Of a stretch of DNA of 64,000 nt, positions 19,894 through 60,125 are shown piece after piece (position 1 is the stretch's first letter; each line of letters opens with the position of its first letter). The notes below the pieces were generated by a model, which saw only the letters and a list, made by a program, of their open reading frames with translations, did no database searches and had not been told where the DNA came from. The position numbers and the translations under genes were made by a program. This stretch comes from a virus, in IMG/VR virus record IMGVR_UViG_3300035698_022838, positions 64,001 to 128,000 of that record. One strand, 5' to 3'.

Positions 19894-20898
19894 TTAAAAC
19901 CCTAATTCATCTAAGTCAGATAATATATCTAGTTGTTCTTTATATTTTTCTGGAATTATTATATTCTTCCTAACTTCTTTAAAGTTTTCATCGTTCCAAA
20001 TTGACTTGAGCAACATAATGAATTTACCTGGTGTAATTTTTATTTGATGATTTATTTCGTTTATGATACGATGTCCAAATATCTTTAGAAAATTGGATTT
20101 CCAATTATCTATATTATCTTCTATATTATCTTTATCACTACTATGAAGATGTTCATATGGATTTATAAATACATCCAGTAAATCAGAAATACTTTGAACC
20201 CTGACGTTATACATATAAAATTCACCAATTGAGAATTCCGGCAGAAAATGATTGAATACATTATTTATATCTGACCCAAAAGATTCAGGAATTGCATCAA
20301 AATCTATACAATCGTTTATATCTGCATAAATGCGATAGCTTCCTCCAACCTTCTTTGGTCCACCAATTAAAGATATTTTATTACCTGTTGTTTTCATTTC
20401 AAAATTACCTAAGACATGTTCAGGTGCACCTTTGAAATTTTTACCATTAAATCCATCTATTTTATATGACCCTTTTGCATTTTTTCCCGGTACACGGGCT
20501 TCTTTCCCTATTCCTGTTACTATTTTTGGTCCACCAATTAAAGATTTTAATTCACTATTATCCATCTCAATTTCGAACGAACCAACATTATTTGGTGAAC
20601 CAATTAAAGATTCTAGGCTTTCTGTTACTAGAAGGACTAAAGCACCTTTTGTATATTTTGGTATACCATCTAGGTTAGGAACACTAGCATTGAAATATCC
20701 GCTTACATTTCCAAATTTTATTTTTTTTAAAGATTTTTGAGATAGGTTGTAATATGCAGGATCAAAATCTCCATCAATGTCGACTAATTCATTATTTAAT
20801 TTCCATGTACCCTTTATTCTTTTATTTAAGAATTTTTCTAAGGAAGGCTTTAATTGATAATTATTTTCTTCGTATAGGTTTATATGTTTCAATTTCAT
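19894..20898 (-). CDS. Repeat (LRR-like 'SLxGxPxxVxG') protein, paralogue of 35428..36309; probable internal head protein
   Basis: Repeats 'SLIGSPNNVG', 'SLIGGPKIV', 'NFKGAPEHVLG', 'SLIGGPKKVGG'; N- and C-termini shared with the paralogue. Confidence 0.75.
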   Translation of the reverse strand: MKLKHINLYEENNYQLKPSLEKFLNKRIKGTWKLNNELVDIDGDFDPAYYNLSQKSLKKIKFGNVSGYFNASVPNLDGIPKYTKGALVLLVTESLESLIGSPNNVGSFEIEMDNSELKSLIGGPKIVTGIGKEARVPGKNAKGSYKIDGFNGKNFKGAPEHVLGNFEMKTTGNKISLIGGPKKVGGSYRIYADINDCIDFDAIPESFGSDINNVFNHFLPEFSIGEFYMYNVRVQSISDLLDVFINPYEHLHSSDKDNIEDNIDNWKSNFLKIFGHRIINEINHQIKITPGKFIMLLKSIWNDENFKEVRKNIIIPEKYKEQLDILSDLDELGF

Positions 20899-20902
20899 AT
20901 AT

Positions 20903-20928
20903 TATATATCTACCTAAAATGTGCGAAA
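20903..20928. repeat. Degenerate direct repeat, copy B (contains GATATATA on the minus strand)
   Basis: See 19856..19884. Confidence 0.65.
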
Positions 20929-20951
20929 CATTAAAAAGAAAATGATATATA

Positions 20952-35427: not shown

Positions 35428-36309
35428 TTAAAACCCTATAGAACTAAGACCAGACACTAGATCCATTACTTTTTCATATTCCTTAGGAATTATTATATCT
35501 TTTCTAATATCTGCAAAATCTTCATTATTCCACATATCTTTAAGCATTATTATAACCCTACCTGGATTTAACTTAAGTTCTTTATTGAAATAATCAGGGT
35601 CCAATAAACTTAAAATAAGATCACTCGCTCTTTTCTTATCACTAATTTCGATATGGTATCCAGTTTCATAGTAATCAGTATCAATATTTCCATTAAGTAT
35701 ACGTAACCATGTTTCTATATTCCACCCAAATTCTTTATCTGGACGTATTAAAAAAGCATCACATTGAAACATTCCACCAATTTCATTTGGTGCTCCTTTA
35801 AGCGAGATCAAGCTATTACCGAAACACGAAAAATCTCCACCAACTTTATCTGGTGCTCCCTCTAAATTAATTAAATTATTTTCATAACAAAGAAAATCCC
35901 CAGGAACCTCTAGTGGTGCTCCTTTTAGTGTGGCTAGCTTATTGTTGGAGCAATCAAATAGATCACCCATATACTTTTTAGGAGACCCATCTAAAGTAGT
36001 TAGCATATTACTAGAACAATTAAACCATCCACCAACATATTCGGGTGCACAATCTAAAGAAATTAAATCTCTCTCGTAACAATTAAAATGTTCAGTAACC
36101 TGTCCAAATTTTATACCTTTTATCTTTCCAAACCAAACCATCTTTCCCTTGCTATTAGCAAAATCAAAGCTACCCTTTATATCTATAGTTCCATCAAGAT
36201 TTTCTTTCCAGGTTCCTGTTGTGCATTTATTCAGAAAATTAACTTGCCTTTTAGTTAGGTTACTATTTTCTTCAGTTGAATAGTTTTCGTATAATTTTAT
36301 ATGTTTCAT
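35428..36309 (-). CDS. Repeat (LRR-like) protein, paralogue of 19894..20898; probable internal head protein
   Basis: ~22-aa repeats 'FxCxxNxLxxLxGAPxxVxG'; begins MKHIKLYENY (alternative start 36324); ends ...LSSIGF. Confidence 0.8.
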   Translation of the reverse strand: MKHIKLYENYSTEENSNLTKRQVNFLNKCTTGTWKENLDGTIDIKGSFDFANSKGKMVWFGKIKGIKFGQVTEHFNCYERDLISLDCAPEYVGGWFNCSSNMLTTLDGSPKKYMGDLFDCSNNKLATLKGAPLEVPGDFLCYENNLINLEGAPDKVGGDFSCFGNSLISLKGAPNEIGGMFQCDAFLIRPDKEFGWNIETWLRILNGNIDTDYYETGYHIEISDKKRASDLILSLLDPDYFNKELKLNPGRVIIMLKDMWNNEDFADIRKDIIIPKEYEKVMDLVSGLSSIGF

Positions 36310-36323: not shown

Positions 36324-37250
36324 TTATGCTTTTGTTGCAAACTTTTGGCGTGCGTTGGTATACATCTCCTCGATATGTGCCTCGGGGATTGTATTCTTTA
36401 ACATTTCCATGACTTGCTTAAGTTCTTTGGATTCTGTTTCGTGTCTAGATTTAATAGTATCTGATGCCTCATCATTTATGTCCCATTTATGATATTTAAA
36501 CAACTGCATCAGATGATCTACAAGGCCTCTTTGTTGTATTTCTGAATCGTGACCTAAACCAACTTTAATTAGATAAGATGTACTTGGACTACTTAATGCA
36601 TCATGTAAAGAATCATGTTCGCACTCATGAACACCACTTTTAGTTCTAAATTTAAAGCATGTTTTTCCACCTTTCTTTTTCATAGTAACAGCTGGATGTA
36701 TTTCATTCTCATTGGTATAAACTCTAAATCCTTTGAATGGATCTAATTTATCTCTTTTAGTTAGTTCTACTTGCATACCATTATCAAGATCAAGTTCATA
36801 TATGCCATTTGAAGTTTCCATAAATGATTTTGAGTTTGATTGTATTCCTAATAAATCACAAAGTATATTTGCATCTTCTTCAATATTATTGATTTTATCA
36901 TCAGACCTAAACATATCTTCTATATAGGATTCTACAAAAGTATCAAATGAATCAGAATTCTCTTGAGTTTTAAACCAATTCATATCAGTTTTAATATTGA
37001 CAACATCAAACTCTGGTGATGATTCATCAATATCACAACATTTTTCTGGTATCGAAACTGAATTGTTTCTGTACTTCATTGCAACATTACCATCATTAAT
37101 ACCATAGGATAAATGCTTCTCTCCTTTCTTAGGTATTCTAATCTTTAACGTATTATCATCTAATGGTCCTATTATACCAATATCACTTTTTCCTTGCATC
37201 TTTGATTCATTTATGCTGGAATATTCAGAAAAATAATATATTTTATTCAT
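36324..37250 (-). CDS. Hypothetical protein, probable internal head protein
   Basis: Start MNKIYYFSEYSSINES carries the capsid-targeting-like motif. Confidence 0.65.
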   Translation of the reverse strand: MNKIYYFSEYSSINESKMQGKSDIGIIGPLDDNTLKIRIPKKGEKHLSYGINDGNVAMKYRNNSVSIPEKCCDIDESSPEFDVVNIKTDMNWFKTQENSDSFDTFVESYIEDMFRSDDKINNIEEDANILCDLLGIQSNSKSFMETSNGIYELDLDNGMQVELTKRDKLDPFKGFRVYTNENEIHPAVTMKKKGGKTCFKFRTKSGVHECEHDSLHDALSSPSTSYLIKVGLGHDSEIQQRGLVDHLMQLFKYHKWDINDEASDTIKSRHETESKELKQVMEMLKNTIPEAHIEEMYTNARQKFATKA

Positions 37251-37680: not shown

Positions 37681-37792
37681 TTCGAATGTTCACTTTTTTT
37701 ATGTATTATATATCTCACTCAATTTTTTATTATTTAAAAGTCATCAACAATCCAATATTGTCAATATATAAGACGAATATAAATAGTACACC

Positions 37793-42443: not shown

Positions 42444-44846
42444 TTAATTCTCATTTTTTCTGAGAATTTCAATATTCTTTGATATTGATGGTTTAATATC
42501 ATCTACCTCAGAAATTTCAATTCTTGTTAAATGCTTATCTTTTGCATTTGTAATATACTTTATCTTCTTTAGAGTTTCGCCTACTTTATCAATAGTATTA
42601 TCTTTCATACCATTATTAATCTCATCAAAGCCAATAACTTCTATTCCTGAATTTTCCTTACTTCCGATCTTACTCTTTAGGAAAGTAAGATTTTCTTTAC
42701 TTAATGTTCCTTTTTTACCAAATGTTTTGTTCTTCACAATTGTTTTTAACATTTCAGTTGGTTGGGTTTCGAACTTTTCTGCCATATAATCTAGAGCACA
42801 AACCCAATTTTTATCCTTAGCATCATATGTAATTAAATATGATAATAGTATACAAACATTATAAATAAATCTTAATTCATCAGGATCTAGATTCTCTGGA
42901 TTTATTTTTGAACCAGCTATACTTTTTATTGCCTGGTAAATATCATTAAAATCATCAGGTCTTAAGTAACCTTCTTCTATATCCTCTTTATGTGGTCTGA
43001 TTGCATCCATAACTGAATTGTATGAAATTTCTATATCAGAACCTCCATTCTTTGCCATTCTCATATTATAATCTAATACATCATCCACAAGATTTACTTT
43101 TGATTCCTTTTCCACACCAGCAAAATTCTTATAATATGAGGTATACCATTTACCAAAAGCATTTATATCTTCTTCGTCATCACCATTAATTTCACTATAC
43201 TTTGACCAGTTACATGGCTTATTCACATTAGACTCGGTTCTTTTGGTTGAGTATAATCCACCATTACCATCTTCGTCCTCGATGAAGAAATAAGAATTCT
43301 TTCTGTCACCTCTAACTGCTTCTATCCAGGAACTTAAAAACTCATGCGGGTAAGAACCTTTTAAGCTACCATCATCCCTAAGAAAATCTTCGCTTTCAAC
43401 GTGCTTATTATAACCTTTTGTTCTTAATAGTTTAGCTAGTTTTTCAGCTAATGCTACTTCAGTCTTTGCTGCATGTCCAGGATCATCTGATGATGCTGGT
43501 CCAAGTTCTTCAGAATATTTTTTAATCTCCTCCTCTATCTCATCAGGATCAATGTATGTTGATTCTAACATTTTCATAAATCCGCTAGATTTTAATACAG
43601 ATCTAGATTCACTAATACTAGAATAATATTTCCTTAATTTAGCTAAACTGTCTTTTATAGCATCTTTATCATCTTTTGAAACCTGGTCTAGCTTCAGTAT
43701 AGAATCTAACATTGCTTTGTCGAACTTACCATCGGCATTCTTATTACCTAACGTACCCTGTATGGTCTTAATAGCTACAGAGGTCCCAGCTTCAAATTTA
43801 CCATCTGCTCCACCTCTAGGTGAAAGTAAATTCTTAATAGGTACGTAAGCATTTATTAGGGCCTTCTGTAATGCTTCAATTATACCAGAGCCTTTTAATC
43901 TAGCATCAGCATCTTTATCCCCAATCTTAAGTGGAAAAACCCTATCGTTCATTTTAGATTCTTTTTCCTCTAAATCTTCCCTGATCTTTACCTCTGCTAT
44001 TCCTTCTTGTGTAAATGCTTTAGTAATATAGTCCAATGCATCAGTAAGAATATCATTTAGATCACCAAACTTCTTTCCTAAATCTTCATCTTTTGCAATT
44101 TTCTTCATTATCAATTCAGTTGCCTTAACTTTATATTGACTATATTCTTGCGAAAGATTATCAACTTTCTTCTCTAGTTCAGCTAATGTTTTTCTATCCG
44201 ATTCTTTTATAGTTGCTTTTTCAAGATCCATTGCCTTGGTTTTTTGCTCTAAAGTACTAAATAATCTATTCCAATCTCTACCATAACCATTCTTTGCATC
44301 CTTTCCTTTAGAATCAGATATTAGATTAATCAGAATTTTTTTAAGTCTATCAGCTCTACCATGAAAACCTATCATCAAAGATTCATTTAAGGCTTTTTCC
44401 ATTTCTCTTGCAATAGCATCCATAGTTTTCTGTACCTTATCGCCATTGGATATAAATTTATCTATAATCTTAGCTTCTAAGGATGGATCTAATTCAACAG
44501 CTCTTTTGATTGCATCACCTATTTTATCTATGCTCTCAAGGTATAATTTTTTAATCTCAGCATAACCAGGATCAATCAATTCAACATCAGTAGCATGATC
44601 TTTTATTTTTGCGAGCATACCTTTTACGCTAGATGAATTACCAACATCTTCTATCTTAGATCTAAATGAATCAGGATTTCTATTTTTATTAGAAGCTACA
44701 TCAAAAACTATTTTTTTGAATGCGCTAAGTAATAGCTCATTCGTTTTCGATAATAAATCATTAACGTCTTCGTTTTCGAATAATCTATACGTATCTATAG
44801 AGATCTGTTTTGCAACAGGATTTGTTTTTAAATAGTCGTTTTTCAT
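42444..44846 (-). CDS. Large helical protein with peptidoglycan-binding-like domain; probable internal head/ejection protein
   Basis: 'PLKIGDKD...IEALQKAL...GGADGKFEAGTSVAIKTIQ...ADGKFDKAML' PGBD pattern; start MKNDYLK at 44846 avoids overlap with the upstream gene. Confidence 0.6.
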   Translation of the reverse strand: MKNDYLKTNPVAKQISIDTYRLFENEDVNDLLSKTNELLLSAFKKIVFDVASNKNRNPDSFRSKIEDVGNSSSVKGMLAKIKDHATDVELIDPGYAEIKKLYLESIDKIGDAIKRAVELDPSLEAKIIDKFISNGDKVQKTMDAIAREMEKALNESLMIGFHGRADRLKKILINLISDSKGKDAKNGYGRDWNRLFSTLEQKTKAMDLEKATIKESDRKTLAELEKKVDNLSQEYSQYKVKATELIMKKIAKDEDLGKKFGDLNDILTDALDYITKAFTQEGIAEVKIREDLEEKESKMNDRVFPLKIGDKDADARLKGSGIIEALQKALINAYVPIKNLLSPRGGADGKFEAGTSVAIKTIQGTLGNKNADGKFDKAMLDSILKLDQVSKDDKDAIKDSLAKLRKYYSSISESRSVLKSSGFMKMLESTYIDPDEIEEEIKKYSEELGPASSDDPGHAAKTEVALAEKLAKLLRTKGYNKHVESEDFLRDDGSLKGSYPHEFLSSWIEAVRGDRKNSYFFIEDEDGNGGLYSTKRTESNVNKPCNWSKYSEINGDDEEDINAFGKWYTSYYKNFAGVEKESKVNLVDDVLDYNMRMAKNGGSDIEISYNSVMDAIRPHKEDIEEGYLRPDDFNDIYQAIKSIAGSKINPENLDPDELRFIYNVCILLSYLITYDAKDKNWVCALDYMAEKFETQPTEMLKTIVKNKTFGKKGTLSKENLTFLKSKIGSKENSGIEVIGFDEINNGMKDNTIDKVGETLKKIKYITNAKDKHLTRIEISEVDDIKPSISKNIEILRKNEN

Positions 44847-44847
44847 A

Positions 44848-45117
44848 TTAATAAATATTTGTCTTATCACCAGCGTCTTCTTTAGATAATATTGCATTGG
44901 CAAATCTATTCAAAAGTACTGGCATTTGTGAATATAAAGATGCTTGTTTCTTTAAACTTGCAGCTTCATCAGCAGGAGTTTCTGCATCCTTTCCATTTCT
45001 AACCTCTTCCGAAATCTCTTCCTTCTTAGTATTAATAGCAGCTCTTGCTTCAGTAACATCATTATTTACACTTTCGTCTATATGGAAATCTTCCCATTGT
45101 TTCAATTTATTATGCAT
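44848..45117 (-). CDS. Small probable internal head protein
   Basis: MHNKLKQWEDFHIDES N-terminus. Confidence 0.65.
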   Translation of the reverse strand: MHNKLKQWEDFHIDESVNNDVTEARAAINTKKEEISEEVRNGKDAETPADEAASLKKQASLYSQMPVLLNRFANAILSKEDAGDKTNIY

Positions 45118-45994
45118 ATCTTCTAGCAATAGTTATTTTAGTTCTCAAATCCCTAATTTGTTCCATTAGTAATTCTCGAATTTCTTTAATGTCTTTGACG
45201 ATTTGTTCCTTGTCTGCTCCTTCCTTATCACCTTTATCCTCCAGCTTTTCCTTTTCGAGATCTAACGTAACATATCTCTCATTCCTTTCAGTTATAAGAA
45301 AACTTACTAATTTCTTTGCACTTGGCTTATCTAACCCCTGTGCAAATTTAGTAAATTGTGCTGCGTTCATACCTAAAAGAGGATCGATATTAAACTTTTT
45401 CTTACTTTTAGAAGCTGGTTCTATTTCTTTATCTACCTCTTTAGCTTTTTCAAGATCACCGAATCTTTCTCTAAATAATCTATCCTTCCTTTTGGCTTCT
45501 AGTGCTGCAGTTTTATATTTATCGTATAATTCATCAGCAACTGATTCATCAGTTAATTCTTTAGCAAGTTTATACAAAGCTTCTGCCAATTCTGCTTCAA
45601 GTTCAGATTTCTTAAGATTCCAATATGATATAAGTCTTTGGTTACCCTCAGTAATTTTTTCAACCTTATCATCAATTTTATCTACGTCTGCAGTTTTCTT
45701 CTTAAGTAATGCAGTTAATAATTTTTCATTTCGGTCAATCATTCTTTCGAGCTTTTTAATCTCTGCAGCATCACTTTTAGTTTGTGCTTTTTTAATTTCC
45801 AACGAATCTATATCTGTTTGTATTACATTCCACTCATCTGTATATTCGGTTTCAATTTTGGAAATTCTGGAAAGTAAAGCATCTATTTTACCTATAGAAC
45901 CACCGAAATTTGCACTAAGCCAATTTACGATTTTCTCCATTGGTTTAATACCTTCATTTATTTCCTCGTCCCATTCTTTAAATTTCAATAACAT
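45110..45994 (-). CDS. Coiled-coil protein, probable internal head protein; paralogue of 45998..47080
   Basis: MLLKFKEWDEEINEG; K/E-rich heptads. Confidence 0.7.
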   Translation of the reverse strand: MLLKFKEWDEEINEGIKPMEKIVNWLSANFGGSIGKIDALLSRISKIETEYTDEWNVIQTDIDSLEIKKAQTKSDAAEIKKLERMIDRNEKLLTALLKKKTADVDKIDDKVEKITEGNQRLISYWNLKKSELEAELAEALYKLAKELTDESVADELYDKYKTAALEAKRKDRLFRERFGDLEKAKEVDKEIEPASKSKKKFNIDPLLGMNAAQFTKFAQGLDKPSAKKLVSFLITERNERYVTLDLEKEKLEDKGDKEGADKEQIVKDIKEIRELLMEQIRDLRTKITIARRYA

Positions 45995-45997: not shown

Positions 45998-47080
45998 TTA
46001 AGCTAGTTTTTTTATTAGAGTTTTTATTTTATCAACACCAGGTTTACTTATAATTTCAGCAACATCTAGACTTAATCCACTATCCATTTCCTTACCAGTC
46101 AATATCGCATTCTTAATATTACTTAGTATATTAGAAAATCCAGACGAATTAGCAAGTTTCTTATCGATTGATAATTTAGTTTTACCAACTTTTTTATATT
46201 CGTTATATAGATTTTTTAGCATATCAATTTCATTAGCTAAACCTTTAACTTTATTCAAATCAACTTTTGTTGGTTTACCCGAGGTTAAATTCTTCTCTAT
46301 AGCTCTAAGTCTTTCTCTACAGTCTTTTTTTACTATTGTAAATTTTTCCTTAGTTTTTTCTTTCAATAATAAAATAATATCAGCATCTTTTTCTGAAATC
46401 TTCTTTCTGAGATCTGTTATCTTAGTAAGCTTAATTTCACCCATATTTGTTATTTTTGCTGATTTACCGGATACATCAGTTGATGTGTCTTTGATATCAG
46501 CTTCTGCTTTTTCTACTTTTTCCTTAGCTATCTTAACCTCATCAGCATCATAATGCTTAGATTTAATAAGATCATATTCGAATTTAGCAAGTTCATATTT
46601 ATCATCAATTAAACCAGCATCATAGTATTCCTTTCTTCTTGCATTTCCTGCTATAGCTTTATCAAGGATTTTCATACCTTTAGCAATCTGCATTCTTTTA
46701 AGTTTTACGAAAGAATTATATTCCTTTTTCTTAGTTGCTATATCTCTTTGTAATTTTGGTGCTTTGTTATCTTTATCATAACCTCTCCTTTCCTTATATA
46801 CAGCATCTTCTAGTTTTTCAACCTCGTCGTTGATTTTATCCTTTTCTTTAATGATCTCTTTTTCTATACCAATATTACCTTTGCGTATCTCATCAATTAC
46901 ACTGAGCTTAGATAACTTACCAAATACGGTTTTATCTAAAGAATTTTTTAAAGCATCTAATGCCTTTCCTTCGTTTAGACCTTCATATTCTAAATATAGA
47001 TCTACTGATATCGAATCGTTTATAGGTTCTGATAAATCCCTTTCTATTAAAAATTCATTATGATTTAGTATTCTGTCCAT
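45998..47080 (-). CDS. Coiled-coil protein, probable internal head protein
   Basis: MDRILNHNEFLIE...LNEG; GATATATA at 47113-47120. Confidence 0.7.
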   Translation of the reverse strand: MDRILNHNEFLIERDLSEPINDSISVDLYLEYEGLNEGKALDALKNSLDKTVFGKLSKLSVIDEIRKGNIGIEKEIIKEKDKINDEVEKLEDAVYKERRGYDKDNKAPKLQRDIATKKKEYNSFVKLKRMQIAKGMKILDKAIAGNARRKEYYDAGLIDDKYELAKFEYDLIKSKHYDADEVKIAKEKVEKAEADIKDTSTDVSGKSAKITNMGEIKLTKITDLRKKISEKDADIILLLKEKTKEKFTIVKKDCRERLRAIEKNLTSGKPTKVDLNKVKGLANEIDMLKNLYNEYKKVGKTKLSIDKKLANSSGFSNILSNIKNAILTGKEMDSGLSLDVAEIISKPGVDKIKTLIKKLA

Positions 47081-47230: not shown

Positions 47231-47932
47231 ATGAAAAAGAAAATGTCATATTTATTTTTATTCTTAGCAATCTTCGCACTAACATCATTTCAGAATACAT
47301 ATCGTATTGCTAATAAAGGAGCAAATGTAACACAAAGTATGAAATTCAACGTTATTACTATAGATAAGGATGAGATGGATTTTAGTGTATCTGAAAAAAG
47401 ACCTATTAATGCAGATTTCTACATTAATAGTAATTTCTTTACGACAGGAGCAGATCCTATTGGTTTAGTAGTAATTGATGGTAAAAGAAAAAGTAAAAGA
47501 ACCAAAGGTGGCGGATTTTTCTATGTTGCTAATGGTAAAGCAATGGTAAAAGCAAAACAGTGTCCAACAATAACACAATATGCATCACAAACTATTCTAT
47601 GGGGAATTGATAATGGTAAAAGAAACATAGGATTATGTAAGACTACACATGGAAATCAAATAAGATACCGTACGATAATGGGTGAAAATAAGAAAGGGCA
47701 AATAGTAATTATCTCATCAAATAGATTAGGTAGAGTAACAATAGACGAGATAATCACGTTTGCTGAAAAAGTAGGATTAACCGAAGCAATCCTACTTGAC
47801 GGAGGAACTTCAGTCGATTATAAATTCTCTGGTGAAAATAAAACAGTTTATTTCCAATCAGTTCCTGATATAGGGAAAAAAATGTTTGATATTATAACAC
47901 CAACAACATATATTTGTGGAAATTTTAATTAA
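47231..47932 (+). CDS. Secreted phosphodiester glycosidase (NAGPA/DUF2233-like)
   Basis: Signal peptide MKKKMSYLFLFLAIFALTS; 'INSNFF', 'RYRTIMG', 'AILLDGGTS'. Confidence 0.75.
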   Translation: MKKKMSYLFLFLAIFALTSFQNTYRIANKGANVTQSMKFNVITIDKDEMDFSVSEKRPINADFYINSNFFTTGADPIGLVVIDGKRKSKRTKGGGFFYVANGKAMVKAKQCPTITQYASQTILWGIDNGKRNIGLCKTTHGNQIRYRTIMGENKKGQIVIISSNRLGRVTIDEIITFAEKVGLTEAILLDGGTSVDYKFSGENKTVYFQSVPDIGKKMFDIITPTTYICGNFN

Positions 47933-49797
47933 GTAATACATCTAAAAGACTTAATACGCTCAACAACTTCTTTAACATAATTATGTGTTCTTATATCAAC
48001 TTTTGGTTTGTACCACACATCCTCGCTTTTACCATAATTAGGTAAATAATTTTCAACATGTCTATCTGAAACTGTTTTACCATTTTTAAGCGTTTTTCCC
48101 TCGAGCGAACATGAAGCTTTTATATCAGGATCTGAGGTTTCGCAATATTTCCTGATTTTTGTCATACCGCAATTATATGAGCCAATTGCAATATCCAATG
48201 CTGCATTACCAGTACCATATTTAAAATTTGATGATGGTTTATGCTCAGAATATCCAGTCTCAACAGCTTTCTTATATGCTTTCTCTATATACATATATGC
48301 AGCTATTAGTGCACCTTTTAAGGTAAGTATATTTTCTTTTACCCCGAGTTCATCTTTTGTAGTCATTTTCATTTGGGCAGGACCTATTGAAGTACCATAG
48401 CCTACTACAGAAGCAAGTATTTCTGGAACATATATTGACCAATATCTTTTTCCTTTTTCAAAGCTACTTTCTCTTCCTATAATACCTAATGCAACTTTTA
48501 AGGTATCTTTATCATAACCTTGTTCAATTAGATCATCAGCAATATATCCAAATTCTTTATCTGGTAAACATTTATACCTTCTTTCTAATTCTTTATCATT
48601 AAGTTTTTCTAAATCTACACTTTTAATATTTAAAGCTACGTCTAAATCTACATCTAGTTTTTTACTAAAAGCTTTTAAATCACTATCGGTTAAACCTAAA
48701 TCTACTCTTTCAGCCTCGTTCAAAAAAAAATCCTCTGATTCATTCAATAATGGAACTGCTTTAGGTTTTCTTTTAGGTCTCCTAACCCAAGCTATTTTAG
48801 AATGCCCATGGATTTTATTAGCAGGATCAGAATATATCCTGCCATATACATTATGTAAAATCAACGGTACACCATCTTTAATTGCACCAACAATACCAAC
48901 ATGAGTATTCATACCAAATGCATCACCGTTAGTAAGTGTTTTACCAGGGGTAACCTTACCGTCTTTATTGGTAATAAAATATGGTTTACTTCTAAACCCT
49001 TTGTTTTCTCCGCCCCTATAAAGTGCTACCTCGTGATAGTTTGAATCTGGATAAAATAAACCAACAACATCACCTAATTGTAATTTTACATTAGGTTTAT
49101 CTGGGATTAGTTTATCTATTATTTTCTTAGCCTTTTCTACGTATTTTCCTTTATAGACACCACCGCCATTTCTATGTATAGCTCCCCACATAGCAGTAAT
49201 TCTGTTTATCTCATTTTCATCAAGATCAGTAAATGCACTATAAATTCTCTTACCTAATTTTTCATTAGCGTGTGCCAGCCATGCATCACCAACACCATCA
49301 ATATCATCACTGAAAAGGTTAACGAATGAAGCACAACCTATATCTTTATTTATTTTAAATATCAATACTGAATCCTTTGGACTTATTTTATCTGCGTGCA
49401 TTTTTTCTAAATATTCAGGATTAGTATCTTTATTAACTAAAACCGTAGTTGGTATTTCATTAGGACCTATAGGATATGGATCATTAGTGAATGGATCACT
49501 TGCCATAGCAGCTTCATGATCATAGCTAGACTTCTTAGAACCTATTTTAACTCCTATCTTAGCAGCTTTTGGATCTAATTGTGCAGGTGCTCCTTTAGGA
49601 AAATATTTCTTATTAAGTTTGGCTACCGCAGATTTGATCTTTGTGATATCTCTCCAAGATCCCTTTGAGGTCTTCCTTTTAGTTAACCATTTACCATTAT
49701 CAAATTTATAATCCCAGACGGTATCAAAATCCTGATATACTTTTGCTTCTGATACATTTGAATTTGAAAAATCTTTGAAATTTATAGCTTTATCCAT
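47929..49797 (-). CDS. Two-domain peptidoglycan hydrolase: CHAP/NlpC-like peptidase plus lytic transglycosylase
   Basis: 'GCASFV...GDAW...GDVVGL...HVGIV'; 'IIGRESSF...SIGPAQM...AIGSYNCG...YVKEV'. Confidence 0.7.
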   Translation of the reverse strand: MDKAINFKDFSNSNVSEAKVYQDFDTVWDYKFDNGKWLTKRKTSKGSWRDITKIKSAVAKLNKKYFPKGAPAQLDPKAAKIGVKIGSKKSSYDHEAAMASDPFTNDPYPIGPNEIPTTVLVNKDTNPEYLEKMHADKISPKDSVLIFKINKDIGCASFVNLFSDDIDGVGDAWLAHANEKLGKRIYSAFTDLDENEINRITAMWGAIHRNGGGVYKGKYVEKAKKIIDKLIPDKPNVKLQLGDVVGLFYPDSNYHEVALYRGGENKGFRSKPYFITNKDGKVTPGKTLTNGDAFGMNTHVGIVGAIKDGVPLILHNVYGRIYSDPANKIHGHSKIAWVRRPKRKPKAVPLLNESEDFFLNEAERVDLGLTDSDLKAFSKKLDVDLDVALNIKSVDLEKLNDKELERRYKCLPDKEFGYIADDLIEQGYDKDTLKVALGIIGRESSFEKGKRYWSIYVPEILASVVGYGTSIGPAQMKMTTKDELGVKENILTLKGALIAAYMYIEKAYKKAVETGYSEHKPSSNFKYGTGNAALDIAIGSYNCGMTKIRKYCETSDPDIKASCSLEGKTLKNGKTVSDRHVENYLPNYGKSEDVWYKPKVDIRTHNYVKEVVERIKSFRCIT

Positions 49798-49819: not shown

Positions 49820-49827
49820 TATATATC
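49820..49827 (-). promoter_or_regulatory. Putative late promoter GATATATA immediately after the capsid terminator
   Basis: 22 nt upstream of the 49797 start. Confidence 0.6.
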
Positions 49828-49890: not shown

Positions 49891-51594
49891 TTATGCTATA
49901 CCGCCTAATGGGATATTAACATGGAATCCAATATACATTGTTTCTGGATGGAAGCCTGCTTCCACTAGAGCGTATCTAGATTTAACTGCAATCTTAGGAG
50001 ACATTGTACCTTCTGAGATTGTTTGGATTGATTCTGCCATCATATAAGGCATGAATTTTAGACCTGGTTCATCATCACCACCTTTTCTTCCAATAAGTAC
50101 TCTATTATCGTTGAACTTCATGTTTTGATCAACATATACAGTCATACCTGCAAGCGAACCTACTGGGTAAAGTGTACCGTTGTTTTGAGTCAATGTGTTA
50201 GAGAATGGAGCAAAAGTGAACTGAGAAATATCTTGCAATGCACTTGCAACGTTAGCGTTAGTAACGATGAAGTTAGCAGGACCTCTTCTTCCTCTGTTAG
50301 ATACTACGTTAGCAGCAGCTAGAATTCTAGAGAATAATCTTCTTTGTAGAGTTGATAAGTTCTCATATGTTCCTGTAGCAGGGCCAGCAGGAGCACCAGC
50401 AGTACCAACAACGCTTGTAACTGCGTTATCATCTTTACCAATATAAGAAGGTATAGTATAACTACCAGCAGTACCACCAATAACTAGGTTAAGGTTTAAA
50501 AGCTGACCTTCAGTTGTATAAAAATCACTGTGATTTGACCAACCTAAAGCAAATGCTCTAGAAAGGATATGCTTATTAATAGCCTGAGAAACCTCGTTAA
50601 CAAGTGCGTTCTCGATCATAGAAATAACATCGATACCGAATTGCTTGTTAAGGTCTTGGATTTGCTCAGTTGTCACTGAAGCAGCTACTTGGAAAGTGTC
50701 AGCCTCAACGAATTTCGTGAACGTTGAAAGTCCCATTGACTGGTAGTAATTAGTCTCACCATATGCTCTTAACATTGGATTATATGACTTAGTACCGTCA
50801 ACAAATGGTCCTTGCCAGTCGTCAGTATTCTGGAAACCAGCTCCAGAGAAACCTTGAATATGATCTTCAAGTGCTTTTACTAGTTCTGCAGAAGCAGTAG
50901 TACTACCAACTTGAGCTCCGTCAAGTGCATTACCAATCTTAGTTGCTCCACCATCAATAACTGAACCAATTGATTCACCTGCTGTAAGAGCAGTAACTTT
51001 AAATATTGGGTAGCAGTCAATTCTAGAAAGACCAATAAACTCAGTAGTAATATATGCACTAGCTGAAGTTGCATTAGTGATATAGAAAGTTGTACCAACT
51101 ACAAGAAGAGCCATTGATGTTTGAGTAGTAACACGTACTTTGATCATTGTAGGTGCAGCAGCAAGTGCGTCAGCAGCTGTGCTTCCTACGCTTGTTGGAC
51201 TTAATTTTCCACCTGCGTATACGTAATCTAAATAAGATAGTACGCCTGTAGGTCCAGACATTGGGATAACAGGTACGATGTCAAATCCAACAGTCTTCGC
51301 AGCTACCTGAATAGCTAATGGAAGTAATGAAGGAAATTTATCACCTGATCCTTGATTTGATGTGGTATAAAAACCAGCATTTGCGTTACCTGTAGTAGGG
51401 AACGTTGGAGGTGCAACTGCACCCATGCCATTCACAACGTTCAGAGACTGATATGCACCAGCTGATTCGTTTAATGAATGATAATGGCAATACTTAGATA
51501 GCCATTCTTTTTTTTCGGTATCTACGATTCCGGCCTTCTGCTCAATTATAGGAGACCATGTTTCGAAAATTTCCGCTTCGTTAATTAATTTCAT
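49891..51594 (-). CDS. gp23: Major capsid protein (T4 gp23-like)
   Basis: 'FDIVPVIPMSGPTG', 'EQIQDLNKQFGID', 'RGRRGPANFIV', 'VGSLAGMTVYVD', 'PKIAVKSRYAL'; biased codon usage. Confidence 0.93.
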   Translation of the reverse strand: MKLINEAEIFETWSPIIEQKAGIVDTEKKEWLSKYCHYHSLNESAGAYQSLNVVNGMGAVAPPTFPTTGNANAGFYTTSNQGSGDKFPSLLPLAIQVAAKTVGFDIVPVIPMSGPTGVLSYLDYVYAGGKLSPTSVGSTAADALAAAPTMIKVRVTTQTSMALLVVGTTFYITNATSASAYITTEFIGLSRIDCYPIFKVTALTAGESIGSVIDGGATKIGNALDGAQVGSTTASAELVKALEDHIQGFSGAGFQNTDDWQGPFVDGTKSYNPMLRAYGETNYYQSMGLSTFTKFVEADTFQVAASVTTEQIQDLNKQFGIDVISMIENALVNEVSQAINKHILSRAFALGWSNHSDFYTTEGQLLNLNLVIGGTAGSYTIPSYIGKDDNAVTSVVGTAGAPAGPATGTYENLSTLQRRLFSRILAAANVVSNRGRRGPANFIVTNANVASALQDISQFTFAPFSNTLTQNNGTLYPVGSLAGMTVYVDQNMKFNDNRVLIGRKGGDDEPGLKFMPYMMAESIQTISEGTMSPKIAVKSRYALVEAGFHPETMYIGFHVNIPLGGIA

Positions 51595-51613: not shown

Positions 51614-53647
51614 TTAAAGCTTACCTTCGAGCGACTTCGCGACCCATGCTAGGTAATCATTTGAATACCCTTGTGGGCTTTTCGTCGTTGCCGACTCTGG
51701 TGTTTCCTGACCTTCGTTCAGTTTCTGAAGTCCGACTGGTTTAGCACCAAGTTGACGAGTTGACCAGAAATTCTTAATTTGGTACTCAGTGTCTAAGTTA
51801 TAGAAAGAAGCTTGAGCAATCACAGATTGCTTTTGTCCCTCATTTAGACCTTCCCAAAGTTCAGAATATGCTGATGGTATTTCATCAATAAATTTGTAAC
51901 CTGATGTTTCAGTGTTTTCTTCGTTTACCGCACTTACGGTCGTTTCTGCTTTTTGTGTTTGAGCAGTAGGCTCGACTTTCGTCTGTGCCTCATTTATATT
52001 ATCTTCAGTCTTTTGTGTTTTGACTGATTCTATCAATGAATCGATTTTATTACCAAGTGATGAATAATCACCTGCAAAACCAGATTCTACTAATTCTACT
52101 TTAGATGCACCTTCTGCGTTTTCTCTTGCGCTTTCATTTAAGGATGGTGCTGCTGTTCCTAATGATTCTGAGATTGATCCAACCTCATCGATATTTGTAT
52201 TCAATTTTTCTGCAATGTAATCTGAATAAGCTATACCTTTATTAAGGCCTTCTGCAATATACTCACTATAAGAAATTCCTTTATTAAGGTTTTCTGCAAT
52301 ATATTCGCTATAATTAATATCATTTTCTAATTTCTCTGCAATATATTCTGAATAAGCTATTCCCTTATCTAAATTCTCTGCCAAGTATTCTGAATATGAA
52401 ATTCCTCTATCTAAATTCTCTGCTAAGTATTCTGAATATGAAATGTTCTTACCAAGATTTTCTCCTAAATATTCTGAATATTGTAAACCATCATCGATTT
52501 TTTCTGCTAGATACTTAGAATAAGAAATGTTCTTATCTACACTTTCAGCAACATATTCTGAATATGAAATTCCTTTATCAACGTTTTCTGCAACATACTT
52601 AGAATAAGAAATATTCTTGTCTAGATTTTCAGCAATATACTTAGAGTAAGAAATACTACTATCTAAATTTTCTGCTAAATATTCGCCGTACTTAATTGCA
52701 CTATCAAGGTTTTCTGCTAGATAACCTGCGTATTTTTCAAGTTTAGTAACCCTTTCTTGTAGGGATATATCTTCAGGTGACGATTCAATGGCTTCGGGGG
52801 ATTCTACCTCAGAAGATTCCGCGACCGCTCCTACTTGTTTCATTTCACTGATCTGTCCTTCGAGTTTACCCATTGCTTCTTTAATAAAAATGGAATATTT
52901 GTTTAACTCTTCAGCAGTTACATATTCTTTGTTAGACTCCATAATGTCGGATTTATTTTTTTCTTGATCAAAAATCTTTTGAAATTCTTCGTTATTCTCA
53001 ACACTATATATCTTTACGTTTGACTCATTTTCGATACCAAAAGACTCATTTATACATTCTAGTGAATTAACCAATGAATTTTTACTCCTTGTTTCCATGA
53101 AATCTGCGTCTAAACCGCAACTTTCATACACTCTTTCAAGTTGTGCATCTGGAAATCCAGGGTCAGCTACTAAGTCATAGGTAAAGATTTTTTTAATCTG
53201 TACTTTCTTATCTGGACCAACATTTCCTGCTGCTCTTGATGAAATAGACAGTGGTATACCCTCGTCTACTAGTTTCTTAGCAATTTGTCCTGCTGGGGTA
53301 TCAAGTAATTTTACCTTAATCTTTAAAACTCTACCAGCCTCGTCATATTCTAGGTTTTCTATAACATGGGAAATATTCTTAAGAGATATGTCAAATTTCT
53401 CAGGGTGATCTAATTCACCAACGAGTCTTTTCTTACTCATTTTGGTTTTAAGATAGTCTAAATGAGGAAGATATTCGCCTTCTTCATAAATCCTTTTGTT
53501 ATTATTCTCTTTACCAAACTGAGCTGCAATACCCTGAAGAATATACTCATCGTTATTCCCAGTCTCTACCTTAGAAACAGTTAAACTGTTGTCTTGCTTT
53601 TCTAAAATAAAGAGTAATTGTTCTTCTATTGATGGAAGCTCTTTCAT
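51614..53647 (-). CDS. gp21: Prohead protease (gp21-like) fused to a scaffold/core domain
   Basis: 'NNNKRIYE', 'GELDHPE', 'SHVI', 'LLDTPAG', 'ISSRAAG', 'TYDLVADPGFPDA'; followed by 14-aa repeats. Confidence 0.9.
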   Translation of the reverse strand: MKELPSIEEQLLFILEKQDNSLTVSKVETGNNDEYILQGIAAQFGKENNNKRIYEEGEYLPHLDYLKTKMSKKRLVGELDHPEKFDISLKNISHVIENLEYDEAGRVLKIKVKLLDTPAGQIAKKLVDEGIPLSISSRAAGNVGPDKKVQIKKIFTYDLVADPGFPDAQLERVYESCGLDADFMETRSKNSLVNSLECINESFGIENESNVKIYSVENNEEFQKIFDQEKNKSDIMESNKEYVTAEELNKYSIFIKEAMGKLEGQISEMKQVGAVAESSEVESPEAIESSPEDISLQERVTKLEKYAGYLAENLDSAIKYGEYLAENLDSSISYSKYIAENLDKNISYSKYVAENVDKGISYSEYVAESVDKNISYSKYLAEKIDDGLQYSEYLGENLGKNISYSEYLAENLDRGISYSEYLAENLDKGIAYSEYIAEKLENDINYSEYIAENLNKGISYSEYIAEGLNKGIAYSDYIAEKLNTNIDEVGSISESLGTAAPSLNESARENAEGASKVELVESGFAGDYSSLGNKIDSLIESVKTQKTEDNINEAQTKVEPTAQTQKAETTVSAVNEENTETSGYKFIDEIPSAYSELWEGLNEGQKQSVIAQASFYNLDTEYQIKNFWSTRQLGAKPVGLQKLNEGQETPESATTKSPQGYSNDYLAWVAKSLEGKL
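52187..52732 (-). repeat. Coding tandem repeat, 13 x 42 bp (YSEYLAENLDKGIS)
   Basis: Counted in the translation. Confidence 0.92.
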
Positions 53648-53673: not shown

Positions 53674-53681
53674 TATATATC
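53674..53681 (-). promoter_or_regulatory. Putative late promoter GATATATA for the protease-capsid operon
   Basis: Intergenic, 26 nt upstream of 53647. Confidence 0.65.
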
Positions 53682-56421: not shown

Positions 56422-57213
56422 TTATTCGGAATAAATCCTGGAATAAGCTTTAGAAGCTAAATCTATTAGCTTCTCTATATATCCTTCATTTCTGAGCTTT
56501 TTAAAGGCGAGATTACCAATAGAAAGTTCTCCTCCATCGGAAAGTCCTTCCTTTCTCATCTTCTGTATTTTCTCTTTGAGTTTCAGTAACCTATCATAAA
56601 GCTCTTTCGCATCTTTAGGTAGATCCGGAATTAATATAAGTTTAGATTCTAATTTGTTTAAATCAGAAACTATTCCCTCGAATTTTTTATTAACGTCCTG
56701 ATCATCAATATCTGGTGGATTAAATTTAGGTTTTTTAATCCATTTATTTTCTTTTAGCGAATATAAACCAGATGCAACATGAGGTTCTTTAGTATCTTGG
56801 ATATAAAGTTCAACATCATGCCCTCTCATAACTATATCATGTCTTAGATTCCAAATAAATCTAACACCATCTACTGCTGCTTTTGTAACTTTCTTTGGTG
56901 CTTTTATTTTATTCAGGTCAATTAGTACATGTATATCTAAATCTGATTTAGACGTATATGTGTAATTAGCACTAGAGCCGGTTAATTGAATATCATCTAT
57001 TGGGGTAGTACCAAGAATATCATCGAATTTCTCATAGAAATCCTTAGCTATTTTCAAAAGTTTCTTTCTAACTAATGAATCGAAGACCCATTTTACTTCT
57101 CCATCCTTCTTTTTATACCTATCCCAAAATTTTGGATTAAGTTCGTCATTATAGAAGGATCCTATTTTCTTCTCGTTTATAGAGAAATCTTTAAAGTCTT
57201 TTACTGTATTCAC
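56422..57213 (-). CDS. Pol-beta-superfamily nucleotidyltransferase
   Basis: 'LTGSSANYTYTSKSDLDIHVL' and 'DVELYIQD'; GTG start. Confidence 0.8.
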   Translation of the reverse strand: MNTVKDFKDFSINEKKIGSFYNDELNPKFWDRYKKKDGEVKWVFDSLVRKKLLKIAKDFYEKFDDILGTTPIDDIQLTGSSANYTYTSKSDLDIHVLIDLNKIKAPKKVTKAAVDGVRFIWNLRHDIVMRGHDVELYIQDTKEPHVASGLYSLKENKWIKKPKFNPPDIDDQDVNKKFEGIVSDLNKLESKLILIPDLPKDAKELYDRLLKLKEKIQKMRKEGLSDGGELSIGNLAFKKLRNEGYIEKLIDLASKAYSRIYSE

Positions 57214-57253
57214 AAAAAAGGATTATTTGGTTTATATATCCAAATAATCCTTT
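57214..57253 (-). terminator. Terminator hairpin with the putative late promoter in its loop
   Basis: 14-bp stem aaaggattatttgg/ccaaataatccttt; GATATATA at 57233-57240; U-tract runs into the GTG start. Confidence 0.8.
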
Positions 57254-58024: not shown

Positions 58025-58731
58025 TATCTAGCTGTTAATATCAAAATGTCAACTACTGCTTTTACATCTCTTTCACAATAATCCTTAATTTGTTCGATTT
58101 TTCCTTCAACCCAATAAGCTTCACTTACCATAGATCCATCCATATCTTCCTTTGGCGACTGTATACCTAGTGAACATGCTAAAAGATCTAAGCTTAAATA
58201 TTTCTGTTGACTCCAACTACCAAAAGCAAAAACTTCAGATGTATCGATATATGCAATCTCCCAAGGTTTTTTACCGAATACCATCAAGTTAGTAGGTACG
58301 GTATGTGATGATTTGGACGTGTAAATTATTCTCTTAGCTATACAAGGTACATCAAAACCTTTAACATTATGTCCAGTGATCTTTAAACCTTTATCTGCGG
58401 CATTCTGTAATACCTTAGCAGTATTCATTAAAATCTCTTCCTCGTTAGCACCATAGAAAGATGTTATTCTAGCACTCTCGTCATGCCATATACCAATTGA
58501 AACACACACTATTCTAGCAAATTCTGGTTCTAAGCTTGCTTTCTCTTTATAGATTTCAGCATTTGTAGCAGTAGAAAATTCAGGATATGCTCCTTTATAA
58601 TACTTACATCTACGATCCCACATTTTGGCTAAACGGGAATTTTCTTTTTCCATTGTTTCGTAATCTGGATAACCTGTTGCGGTTTCAACATCCAAAAACA
58701 AACACTTGTCTAATTGACTCTTGTCTATCAT
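58024..58731 (-). CDS. 3'-5' exonuclease (PolB proofreading-like, DEDDy)
   Basis: 'LFLDVET', 'GHNVKGFDVP', 'IKDYCERDV'. Confidence 0.88.
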   Translation of the reverse strand: MIDKSQLDKCLFLDVETATGYPDYETMEKENSRLAKMWDRRCKYYKGAYPEFSTATNAEIYKEKASLEPEFARIVCVSIGIWHDESARITSFYGANEEEILMNTAKVLQNAADKGLKITGHNVKGFDVPCIAKRIIYTSKSSHTVPTNLMVFGKKPWEIAYIDTSEVFAFGSWSQQKYLSLDLLACSLGIQSPKEDMDGSMVSEAYWVEGKIEQIKDYCERDVKAVVDILILTAR

Positions 58732-59609
58732 TATTTTTTAAGTTTTTTATTTATAACTATTGGCTTTAGTGACATAGCCTCTGATCTGTATTTAATACAT
58801 GCTTTTTCTTCAACCGGTGAATCTAACAAAACATCCATCTTAAGGCCAAAAGTTGGTATGCGTCTTGTTAGATAGTCTGTTGTTTTAGTACTGAGTATTT
58901 TTCCGCCCTCGTCAATATCATCTGATTCACTATGTATGAATAATGGATTACTATCAAACCACGTAGAGCAACTTAAGAATAAAGCTTCTCTGATGGATAA
59001 ACCACCACTATTGAATCCATGGGCTAGAAATCTAAAACATATTGGTATATTAGTTCTGTAATAAATACCAGACATTAAATCAGTTACTGAAAAAAGACTT
59101 GGTTTGTCATCATTACAAACGATTAGTAACTTTTGGATGAATTTAGGAAGTAATTCAACTTCATCACAGAATCTACTCATGGTTTTCTTACGTGCGCCGT
59201 ACGCGCTCCCGATGCGAATTATTATAGAGGGTTCTTCCACACCAATAGCTTCTAGAAATCCACCCATTAATGTAAGAGTGGTTTTGGTTGTACCCAAACT
59301 TTCTGGTAATTGACTGCCAAGAAAATAAAAAGCTGGTAAATAGAAAACAATTCTATTCCCCTTTCTAATTCTTTGAGTGATATTATTTAACAATTCACTA
59401 TACTCATCATCCTCTTCAACTATAGATACATCAGGAAATGTGATATTTATTGGAAAATTAAAACAAGAAACCTTTAAACCATTTTTATGGTCTAGGTCAA
59501 GTCTTTTGTCTATTATGGTAAGAAATTCTGCTAGAGAATTAATCGGAGGGATCTTAAATAGATCTCTATTAATACATCCTAAATTATTGCTATCTCTACT
59601 TAATATCAT
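58731..59609 (-). CDS. UV-damage endonuclease (UvdE/UvsE)-like protein, apparently lacking catalytic residues
   Basis: 'IGSAYGARKKTMSRF', 'NDDKPSLFSVTDL', 'IPICF', 'STW', 'HSES' align to UVDE, but the metal ligands are substituted. Confidence 0.7.
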   Translation of the reverse strand: MILSRDSNNLGCINRDLFKIPPINSLAEFLTIIDKRLDLDHKNGLKVSCFNFPINITFPDVSIVEEDDEYSELLNNITQRIRKGNRIVFYLPAFYFLGSQLPESLGTTKTTLTLMGGFLEAIGVEEPSIIIRIGSAYGARKKTMSRFCDEVELLPKFIQKLLIVCNDDKPSLFSVTDLMSGIYYRTNIPICFRFLAHGFNSGGLSIREALFLSCSTWFDSNPLFIHSESDDIDEGGKILSTKTTDYLTRRIPTFGLKMDVLLDSPVEEKACIKYRSEAMSLKPIVINKKLKK

Positions 59610-59642
59610 TAATGATTTTAGTAGATAATAGATAGAAAGTTT

Positions 59643-60125
59643 CTAACTTCCTACACCTTCTTGACCTAAAGATGTATTATTATATACCGTTGGTGAATTA
59701 TATACTCCACCAGGCAATTCATTGAACTTAAATTGTGAAATTATTTCTTGATGTCCCTTATCTCCCTTATCAACAAATTCTATGCTATTTGCTTTTAATT
59801 CAATTACTTCCTCTTTATCAGCTTTCTTTGAACTTACTTGGACAAAGTATTTATATGATTTACCATCAGTATTTTTAGCTCTTCTAACTATCATACCAGC
59901 AACCTTTTTATCTGAGTCCATAGGTTCACCTATAACAATATCACCAATCTGGTATTGTGAACCACTATTGGTTCTTTTTACATTTGGATCTGGTCCAACT
60001 GAAGTTCCTAGGTCTTTATATGGCTTATATTGGATTTTAAATATACCATTTGCTCCACCATACCCGTAGGTATCGCCAAAAGTACCAGCATCGAAAAATT
60101 CATTTATATGTTTAATGTGTTTCAC
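59643..60125 (-). CDS. Hypothetical protein (SH3/KOW-like core), probable internal head protein
   Basis: MKHIKHINEF; 'YQIGDIVIG'; GATAAATA at 60145-60152. Confidence 0.65.
   Translation of the reverse strand: MKHIKHINEFFDAGTFGDTYGYGGANGIFKIQYKPYKDLGTSVGPDPNVKRTNSGSQYQIGDIVIGEPMDSDKKVAGMIVRRAKNTDGKSYKYFVQVSSKKADKEEVIELKANSIEFVDKGDKGHQEIISQFKFNELPGGVYNSPTVYNNTSLGQEGVGS

Follow-up and report, generated by a model that had tools for sequence, protein, structure and literature searches.

Protein loading into a phage head has its textbook case in the capsid-targeting sequence (CTS) of phage T4, known on a few small proteins of the T-even phages. Encapsulin cargo-loading peptides are short terminal peptides that direct unrelated enzymes into a shell of the HK97 fold; they are usually C-terminal, bind the shell protein itself and remain uncleaved, and their cargo stays in its own cell. 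The sequence considered here, referred to as the window, is a stretch of 64,000 nucleotides (bases 64,001-128,000 of IMG/VR virus record IMGVR_UViG_3300035698_022838, a phage genome of 162,880 bp with 32% G+C) in which a short N-terminal peptide, the tag, recurs at the start of mostly unrelated proteins. It appears likely that this tag combines a T4-type capsid-targeting sequence with a cleavage site of the prohead protease, in a system expanded to approximately 22 proteins; since the tag resembles the T4 head-loading signal, the tagged proteins probably enter the capsid, lose their tags to the head protease and reach the host together with the DNA.

In T4, the prohead protease gp21 cleaves the CTS off the internal proteins IPI, IPII and IPIII (Mullaney and Black, 1996; PMC9026906, PMC3012670). 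This protease cuts after L/I-x-E. The ten N-terminal residues of IPIII are sufficient for targeting to the head, which depends on Tyr4 and Phe7, whereas processing depends on Ile8 and Glu10 (PMC9026906). Exactly the positions that are important in T4 (4, 7, 8 and 10) are conserved in the tag described here. Like the T4 CTS, the tag is an N-terminal peptide of 10-20 amino acids (aa) with two aromatic residues three apart and [IL]-x-E directly behind them, it stands on unrelated proteins, and a gp21-family protease is encoded in the same genome. Unlike the T4 CTS, the tag is two to three residues longer at the front, where it has an extra hydrophobic position, and a spacer of variable length often lies ahead of the cut site; the predicted set numbers about 22 tagged proteins, compared to three internal proteins in T4, and the predicted cargo includes enzymes of up to 622 aa. 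The protease also differs from that of T4 in being fused to the scaffold, a 13-fold repeat of a tag-like heptad.

In the giant phages phiKZ, 201phi2-1 and SPN3US, a gp21-like protease cleaves ejection and inner-body proteins behind S/A/G-x-E (PMC5694885, PMC7411985, PMC9026906). The system considered here resembles them in its many predicted head-internal proteins, in N-terminal propeptides that would be removed after Glu by a diverged gp21 homologue, and in the presence of enzymes among the cargo; the phiKZ-type propeptides differ in being long, in having no short common tag, and in their cut motif. The T4 CTS system is known by experiment, and packaging and cleavage in the phiKZ-type phages have been shown by mass spectrometry, whereas the present system is predicted from sequence. 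The encoding of protease and scaffold in one reading frame recalls C/Nu3 of phage lambda and the herpesviruses; unlike these, the scaffold here is a tandem repeat, each unit with a cut site that resembles the cargo tag. In common with encapsulin peptides, the tag is a short terminal peptide that would address unrelated enzymes; it differs in its N-terminal position, and in its predicted cleavage and delivery. The literature searched contained no paper on expanded CTS sets in uncultured T4-like phages.

The window encodes a gp23-type major capsid protein (MCP), whose best matches by tblastn were found in uncultured huge phages (47%), in the Lak megaphages of Prevotella (39%), and in phages of Flavobacteriia (31-38%). 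A megablast search of 20 kb against a phage collection returned no near-identical DNA; in IMG/VR, relatives with capsid-protein identities of 69-89% were found on at least 80 contigs, of which the longest reaches 430 kb. Together with the MCP matches, these relatives place the phage in a large, widespread, uncultured T4-like clade with genomes of 130-430 kb. Comparisons within the clade are based on 80 related IMG/VR loci around the MCP gene.

Form, enrichment and conservation of the tag

The tag can be written M-x(2-3)-hydrophobic-x-x-aromatic-x-x-aromatic; [ILV]-x-E usually comes next, either immediately or separated by a short spacer. There is little variation in position: the hydrophobic residue is the third to fifth residue in nearly all cases, and the two aromatics three apart are present in the 17 tag cores that were aligned. 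All 11 N-terminal peptides quoted in the original prediction were found at their starts on the minus strand, three of them (36309, 37250 and 45117) beginning at an internal ATG of the longest open reading frame (ORF); the exact motif proposed there fits only about half of the listed peptides, and the looser form hydrophobic-x-x-aromatic-x-x-aromatic fits them better. The proposed N-terminal enrichment was borne out by a strict regular expression, which found 11 proteins in the first 25 aa where 2.0 were expected from the internal rate. A position-specific scoring matrix (PSSM) was then built solely from the tags of the 80 related loci and applied to all 51,220 positions of this genome. At 14 bits or more, 7 of 7 matches lay two to five residues after a start codon, positions that make up 3% of the total; at 12 bits or more, a level reached by 13 of the 51,220 positions, the same was true of 10 matches, with an 11th at offset 1. 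The tag of T4 itself, as read from the T4 genome, scores 11.8 bits with this clade-trained matrix. Seven near-start matches fall at 14-46 kb of the genome, beyond the window and in genes without orthology to the training loci; this part of the test is therefore independent.

The residues K, N, I, F, Y, E and D belong to AT-rich codon families, and in a genome of this low G+C content the pattern might be thought a by-product of AT-rich codon use, or an mRNA-level start signal. However, shuffling residues 2-25 of every protein with their composition kept left 0.27, 0.12 and 0.03 proteins at 8, 10 and 12 bits, compared to 15, 13 and 11 observed; the signal is abolished by shuffling, and the AT-rich composition of the N-termini is therefore not its cause. 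The aromatic positions also vary among F, Y, W and H. With the codon-bias artefact ruled out by this control, the probability left to such an explanation is negligible. DNA identity among the 17 aligned tag cores averages just 51%, and both Phe codons are in use, so that the tag is conserved at the protein level.

Low DNA identity also bears on the possibility that the tag is a functionless relic, a 5' cassette common to these genes that recombination distributed along with the promoter. The T4 ipII and ipIII tags are identical over 30 nt (T4 65689-66415), suggesting cassette exchange, and the tag in the present genome is often accompanied by a promoter motif, as a relic of this kind would be; yet the tags here, unlike those of T4, have diverged at the DNA level, and orthologues with 30-70% protein identity retain the aromatics and the Glu, which indicates purifying selection on the peptide and makes a functionless relic very improbable. 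In the 263-, 294-, 89- and 231-aa families, the tag sequence drifts while the aromatics and the boundary Glu are kept, with the conserved body right behind the Glu. Boundary Glu invariance was established by formal alignment of two families: E14 of the 263-aa family is invariant in 19 orthologues, with the conserved body beginning directly after it, and in 23 orthologues of the 89-aa family E15 is invariant and F11 nearly so. Among 63 orthologues of the 294-aa protein the [ILV]-[ND]-E boundary is kept, with insertions and deletions in the stretch that separates the aromatic pair from the cut site; the spacer is likewise variable in 42 orthologues of the 231-aa protein, with [ILV]-x-E conserved. 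In the adenylate kinase, the tag precedes the P-loop and the Pfam domain begins at aa 27; the RimK domain is likewise preceded by its tag.

Homologous bodies carry different leaders in other phages. Homologues of the 622-aa body in other metagenomic phages show three or four quite different leader classes ahead of the conserved body, and this gene is accessory, being absent from the MCP flanks of the relatives. The homologue of the 263-aa protein in Maribacter phage Molly has another recurrent leader, ending in L-V-E and common to several Molly genes, and the homologue in cyanophage S-B68 has no aromatic tag. The leader therefore goes with the phage lineage and not with the protein. Molly also encodes a protease-scaffold fusion rich in hydrophobic-x-E-S sites, and would offer a culturable system for a test of leader-directed packaging; virion proteomes of Molly or of Tenacibaculum phage PTm1 were not found in the literature searched. 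As a separate observation, the cultured Molly_1 (L089, record 13.5-22.4 kb; L093) carries the leader L-K-S/T-L-V/I-E-S... on at least six small genes. In other huge-phage lineages (L087:8143-11540 and L088:8538-11541), at least two other long conserved N-terminal leaders occur on adjoining unrelated genes, one of approximately 30 aa ending in Y-L-S-E-Q and one of approximately 22 aa ending in V-L-x-E-Q.

Head protease, scaffold repeats and capsid protein

The 677-aa ORF upstream of the capsid gene combines a protease domain with a scaffold-like acidic region. The protease domain matched the head maturation protease family PHROG 207 (E 5e-37) and Pfam family S80 (PF20034; 26.2 bits, above the cut-off of 23.4), whereas the match to S77 (PF03420; 24.2 bits) stayed below its cut-off of 27. 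BLASTP aligned the domain with T4 gp21 (E 6e-07), placing G-E-L-D-H-P and I-S-S-R on the His and Ser motifs of gp21, and these motifs are invariant in 23 orthologues; by sequence homology, the domain is a member of the gp21 family of prohead serine proteases. A PDB profile search with the protease-scaffold alignment returned nothing at E <=0.01.

The scaffold repeats have a period of 42 nt and 11.3 copies according to Tandem Repeats Finder (TRF), and 9-13 copies are present in all full-length relatives. Their heptad has the same layout as the cargo tags and as the tag of T4 (Y-Q-E-F-I-A-E). A count of aromatic-x-x-aromatic-[ILVMF]-x-E over the proteome gave 38 heptads: 14 in the scaffold protein (13 in the repeat array and one at aa 251-257), nine at N-termini, and 15 elsewhere. 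AlphaFold2 (AF2) predicted the repeats as long helices with low confidence (mean predicted local distance difference test, pLDDT, of 49 for the protease-scaffold protein). The repeats are likely to be the docking partner of the tag, and the scaffold thus appears to account for what the tag binds. More tentatively, and with the balance of probability somewhat against it, the tag could duplicate the repeat unit of the scaffold itself, and cargo would then co-assemble as a "pseudo-scaffold" helix. If this were true, the injected proteome of a T4-like phage could be read from its scaffold sequence; it would amount to approximately 10% of all genes in this clade, and enzymes of nucleotide metabolism and RNA modification would be pre-loaded as a starter kit, in place of a few anti-defence proteins.

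In the MCP, the propeptide zone is homologous by alignment to that of T4 gp23; the predicted cut falls between residues 43 and 44, and the surrounding motif is identical in all relatives. A copy of the promoter-like octamer GATATATA, discussed in the next section, was also noticed inside the protease-scaffold ORF (53005-53012, minus strand), just past the protease domain and approximately 70 nt upstream of the in-frame Met236. With this arrangement (52942-53012, minus strand), the ORF could contain a second, nested gene for the scaffold, comparable to C/Nu3 of lambda; the putative nested product would have a tag-like heptad approximately 15 residues from its start.

A promoter-like motif and the proposed route into the head

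The octamer GATATATA is present in 35 copies on the coding strand and in six on the opposite strand; the window holds 16 copies (15 on the minus strand) where 8.0 were expected. It is found 12-40 nt upstream of gene starts, mostly at 24-36 nt, and also ahead of a portal-like gene (73 nt upstream) and of long structural-type late genes outside the window. In this genome it precedes 12 of 21 tagged genes, including tagged genes within the replication-type region, compared to 22 of 170 others (Fisher p 1.5e-05); in the 80 related loci it stands at 137 of 174 tagged and 161 of 967 untagged ORFs, a comparison in which relatedness of the ORFs inflates the p-value. By analogy with TATAAATA of T4, the octamer can be read as a late promoter.

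The promoter motif is relevant to the proposal that the tag is recognized by a different partner (a modifying enzyme, for instance, or a chaperone or intracellular hub) and came to resemble that of T4 by convergence. Many of the tagged enzymes are of a cytoplasmic metabolic type, as this proposal would lead one to expect; yet the tagged genes bear the promoter motif of head and tail genes, the tag has its heptad in common with the repeats of the head scaffold and a head-protease motif at its end, and no candidate partner enzyme was seen linked to the tagged genes. Convergence of this kind is accordingly considered distinctly unlikely.

In the preferred reading, that of a T4-type capsid-targeting sequence, the tagged genes would be transcribed with the head genes, most of them behind their own late-type promoter motif; the motif is observed, and the timing would follow from it. 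The short amphipathic tag would dock each protein onto the scaffold core, as the observed heptad similarity suggests, with the C-terminal half of the protease-scaffold fusion and its 13 repeats of aromatic-x-x-aromatic-[ILV]-x-E serving as the scaffold. The capsid shell would close around this core, and the gp21-type serine protease would then cut after [ILV]-x-E, at sites predicted from motif and conservation, to yield scaffold peptides of approximately 14 aa, an MCP shortened by 43 residues, and cargo proteins freed from their tags. The freed cargo, proposed to comprise about 22 proteins including a peptidoglycan hydrolase, nucleotidyltransferases, an adenylate kinase and a RimK-like ATP-grasp enzyme, would remain in the head with the DNA and enter the host at infection, as T4 internal proteins and Alt do.

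The original prediction of a T4-like tag, cut by a gp21-type protease after [ILV]-x-E, has withstood every computational test that was able to refute it: the enrichment at N-termini, the presence of a gp21-family protease with its His and Ser motifs, the recognition of T4's own tag by a model trained on the clade, the cut motif at the end of the MCP propeptide and in every scaffold repeat, the invariance of the Glu, and the association with a promoter motif of the late type. Packaging and delivery are inferred, as are the steps of docking, cleavage, retention in the head and injection. If true, the capsid-targeting logic of T4 would be scaled up approximately five-fold, onto large enzymes and in a widespread uncultured clade; if confirmed, it would provide a sequence rule to predict injected proteins in metagenomic phages, pointers to new early-acting effectors, and alternative tags for packaging foreign proteins in phage capsids.

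As a caveat, several points weigh against this reading. The scaffold half has no significant similarity to T4 gp22 (BLASTP, E 0.1), so that it is motif resemblance by itself which points to docking onto the scaffold, and the tag matrix gives the scaffold repeat, in the correct register, just 5.0 bits. One half of the tagged genes lies among replication-type genes; four window proteins bear a partial tag, two of these without an [ILV]-x-E site. Several tagged proteins are of the housekeeping type (adenylate kinase, RimK-like ligase), and nothing obvious demands their injection. The identification of GATATATA as a late promoter is itself a matter of analogy. Finally, the phage is uncultured and represented by its genome sequence.

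Tagged proteins, their predicted functions and neighboring genes

The genome-wide tally of approximately 22 tagged proteins resolves into 21 families, with the 334- and 293-aa proteins as the sole pair of paralogues, in agreement with the earlier claim that the tagged proteins are mostly unrelated. Within the window (Table 1), seven tags are classified as strong (263-, 622-, 360-, 294-, 89-, 231- and 308-aa proteins, starts at 57213, 49797, 47080, 45994, 45117, 40330 and 37250) and four as partial (334-, 293-, 145- and 160-aa proteins, starts at 20898, 36309, 37680 and 60125). Another 11 tagged genes are located outside the window at 14-46 kb of the genome, among replication-type genes. The absence of the tag from baseplate and replication genes, as originally stated, was upheld for baseplate, tail and replication core genes; the tag is, however, not limited to the late region. 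The tags described originally as internal require revision: those of the 116-aa and the approximately 800-aa proteins are variant leaders near the N-terminus, and the 894-aa protein (53720-56404) has no tag; the candidate in it was rejected as a conserved D-F-Q-W-W domain segment without a cut site.

Table 1. Window coordinates of tagged genes, head genes and copies of the promoter-like motif.
Feature	Position (strand)	Basis and remarks
160-aa protein, partial tag: short leader ending I-N-E, no aromatic pair	59643..60125 (-)	orthologues
263-aa protein, strong tag at aa 1-14 ending I-N-E	56422..57213 (-)	PSSM 19.4 bits, offset 3; first gene of head operon; GATATATA 27 nt upstream
Late-type promoter-like motif GATATATA	53674..53681 (-)	upstream of protease-scaffold/MCP operon
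Prohead protease domain (gp21-family homologue), aa 1-230 of 677-aa protease-scaffold fusion	52958..53647 (-)	PHROG, Pfam, BLASTP
Scaffold part, 13 tandem 14-aa repeats, each with Y-x-x-Y-[LIV]-A-E	52190..52753 (-)	translation; TRF
MCP (gp23 homologue), predicted 43-aa propeptide ending S-L-N-E|S	49891..51594 (-)	tblastn; T4 gp23 alignment
622-aa protein, strong 17-aa tag ending V-S-E	47929..49797 (-)	tag offset 3; GATATATA 30 nt upstream
360-aa protein, strong 13-aa tag ending L-I-E	45998..47080 (-)	PSSM 20.2 bits; GATATATA 40 nt upstream
294-aa protein, strong 14-aa tag ending I-N-E	45110..45994 (-)	PSSM 12.8 bits, offset 1
89-aa small protein, strong 15-aa tag ending I-D-E	44848..45117 (-)	start at 45117
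~800-aa protein, longer different leader, conserved hydrophobic-x-E-N near aa 25	42444..44846 (-)	orthologue alignment
231-aa protein, strong: tag core and spacer, L-D-E ending at aa 22	39635..40330 (-)	PSSM 16.9 bits; GATATATA 28 nt upstream
116-aa protein, tag-like core at residue 11, variant, uncertain	39270..39620 (-)	PSSM 9.6 bits, offset 10
145-aa protein, partial: aromatic half, without [ILV]-x-E	37243..37680 (-)	PSSM 10.7 bits; GATATATA 34 nt upstream
308-aa protein, strong 15-aa tag ending I-N-E, accessory	36324..37250 (-)	internal ATG 37250; PSSM 8.0 bits
293-aa protein, partial tag	35428..36309 (-)	PSSM 8.1 bits; 30% identity to paralogous 334-aa protein
334-aa protein, partial tag (single aromatic)	19894..20898 (-)	N-terminus; GATATATA 12 nt upstream
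Further GATATATA copies upstream of tagged genes	57233-57240, 49820-49827, 47113-47120, 40351-40358, 37707-37714, 20903-20910	

The 360-aa gene is conserved beside the MCP gene throughout the clade, and its product has a second conserved [LIV]-N-E site approximately 40 aa beyond the tag, a pattern kept in 52 orthologues. The 160-aa protein keeps hydrophobic-N/D/Y-E followed by F/Y in 45 orthologues. R-I-Y-D-Y of the 145-aa protein is conserved in 20 orthologues, with the cut motif absent, and the N-terminus of the 116-aa protein is highly conserved in 39. No orthologue of the 308-aa protein was found in the MCP flanks of the relatives. The approximately 800-aa protein is a possible processed head protein.

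The cargo list of the original prediction is supported only in part, by a fold match and a sequence signature. The AF2 model of the 622-aa protein (pLDDT 82) shows residues 1-16, the tag, as disordered. Residues 405-622 match MltF, MltC, Slt and goose-type lysozymes (Z 9-11, rmsd, the root-mean-square deviation, of 3.4-4.7 A over 140-158 residues), and every one of the top 50 structural matches of this C-terminal domain is a hydrolase of peptidoglycan or chitin, almost all of them with the lysozyme-like fold. The central domain has conserved Cys155, His299 and His315, a pattern typical of NlpC/P60-CHAP peptidases, which suggests a domain of this kind and agrees with an ESM Atlas lead. By its modeled structure, the protein is predicted to be a peptidoglycan hydrolase with a lysozyme-like C-terminal fold. 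It has no Pfam match at E <0.01, and a Foldseek search with the whole model gave no match at E <=0.001; the matches with Z 9-11 came from a second aligner. The 263-aa protein matched PHROG 36119 (E 5e-37), and a nucleotidyltransferase signature (G-S...D-x-D; G-[GS]-x(9-13)-D-x-[DE]) is conserved in its family consensus. Pfam NTP_transf_2 reached 20.2 bits against a cut-off of 21, MTPAP was also below its cut-off, and PDB profile matches were weak, the best being the AMPylation domain of DrrA (E 0.2); from the signature, with these matches sub-threshold, the protein is predicted to be a nucleotidyltransferase of the Pol-beta type. As for the peptidoglycan-binding protein of the original list, the PG_binding_1 match of the approximately 800-aa protein (E 0.002) is weak and below the Pfam cut-off, and the leader of this protein is non-canonical. 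Tagged genes outside the window include those of the adenylate kinase and the RimK-like ATP-grasp protein. For most tagged proteins, no family was found in Pfam or PHROGs, and PDB sequence searches with the 622-, 308- and 334-aa proteins gave chance-level matches only.

These assignments bear on a closer alternative, in which scaffold binding and cleavage of the tag both take place, but most tagged proteins are assembly or internal structural components (such as core or DNA-condensing proteins), some of which may exit the head with the scaffold peptides, rather than effectors delivered to the host. The syntenic tagged set beside the capsid gene (263, 360, 294, 89 and 231 aa) is conserved in the clade like core head genes, and most of it lacks a recognizable enzyme domain, as structural components would. 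The tagged set nevertheless includes clear enzymes without an assembly role (peptidoglycan hydrolase, adenylate kinase and RimK-like ligase), and accessory tagged genes differ between genomes, as T4 internal-protein loci do; a mainly structural role is therefore regarded as unlikely.

Several other genes of the window were noted. The 622-aa protein is the only predicted peptidoglycan hydrolase found in the window; the gp5-like baseplate hub protein (222 aa, 26261-26929, minus strand) matches PHROG 430 over its N-terminal 93 residues only and has no lysozyme domain. A homing-endonuclease-like ORF (20952-22259, plus strand; PHROG 3339) has its own GATATATA 8 nt upstream and faces the promoter of the tagged 334-aa gene. 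The tagged head-module block also contains an untagged asparagine-synthase-like enzyme (Pfam E 2e-38) together with a small, likewise untagged P-loop kinase-like protein (40384-42333, minus strand). A gene at 47231-47932 on the plus strand, located between tagged genes and just downstream of the MCP gene, encodes a protein that has a signal peptide and a phosphodiester-glycosidase domain of the NAGPA type (Pfam E 3e-13); like the 622-aa gene, it is absent from the corresponding position in the relatives.

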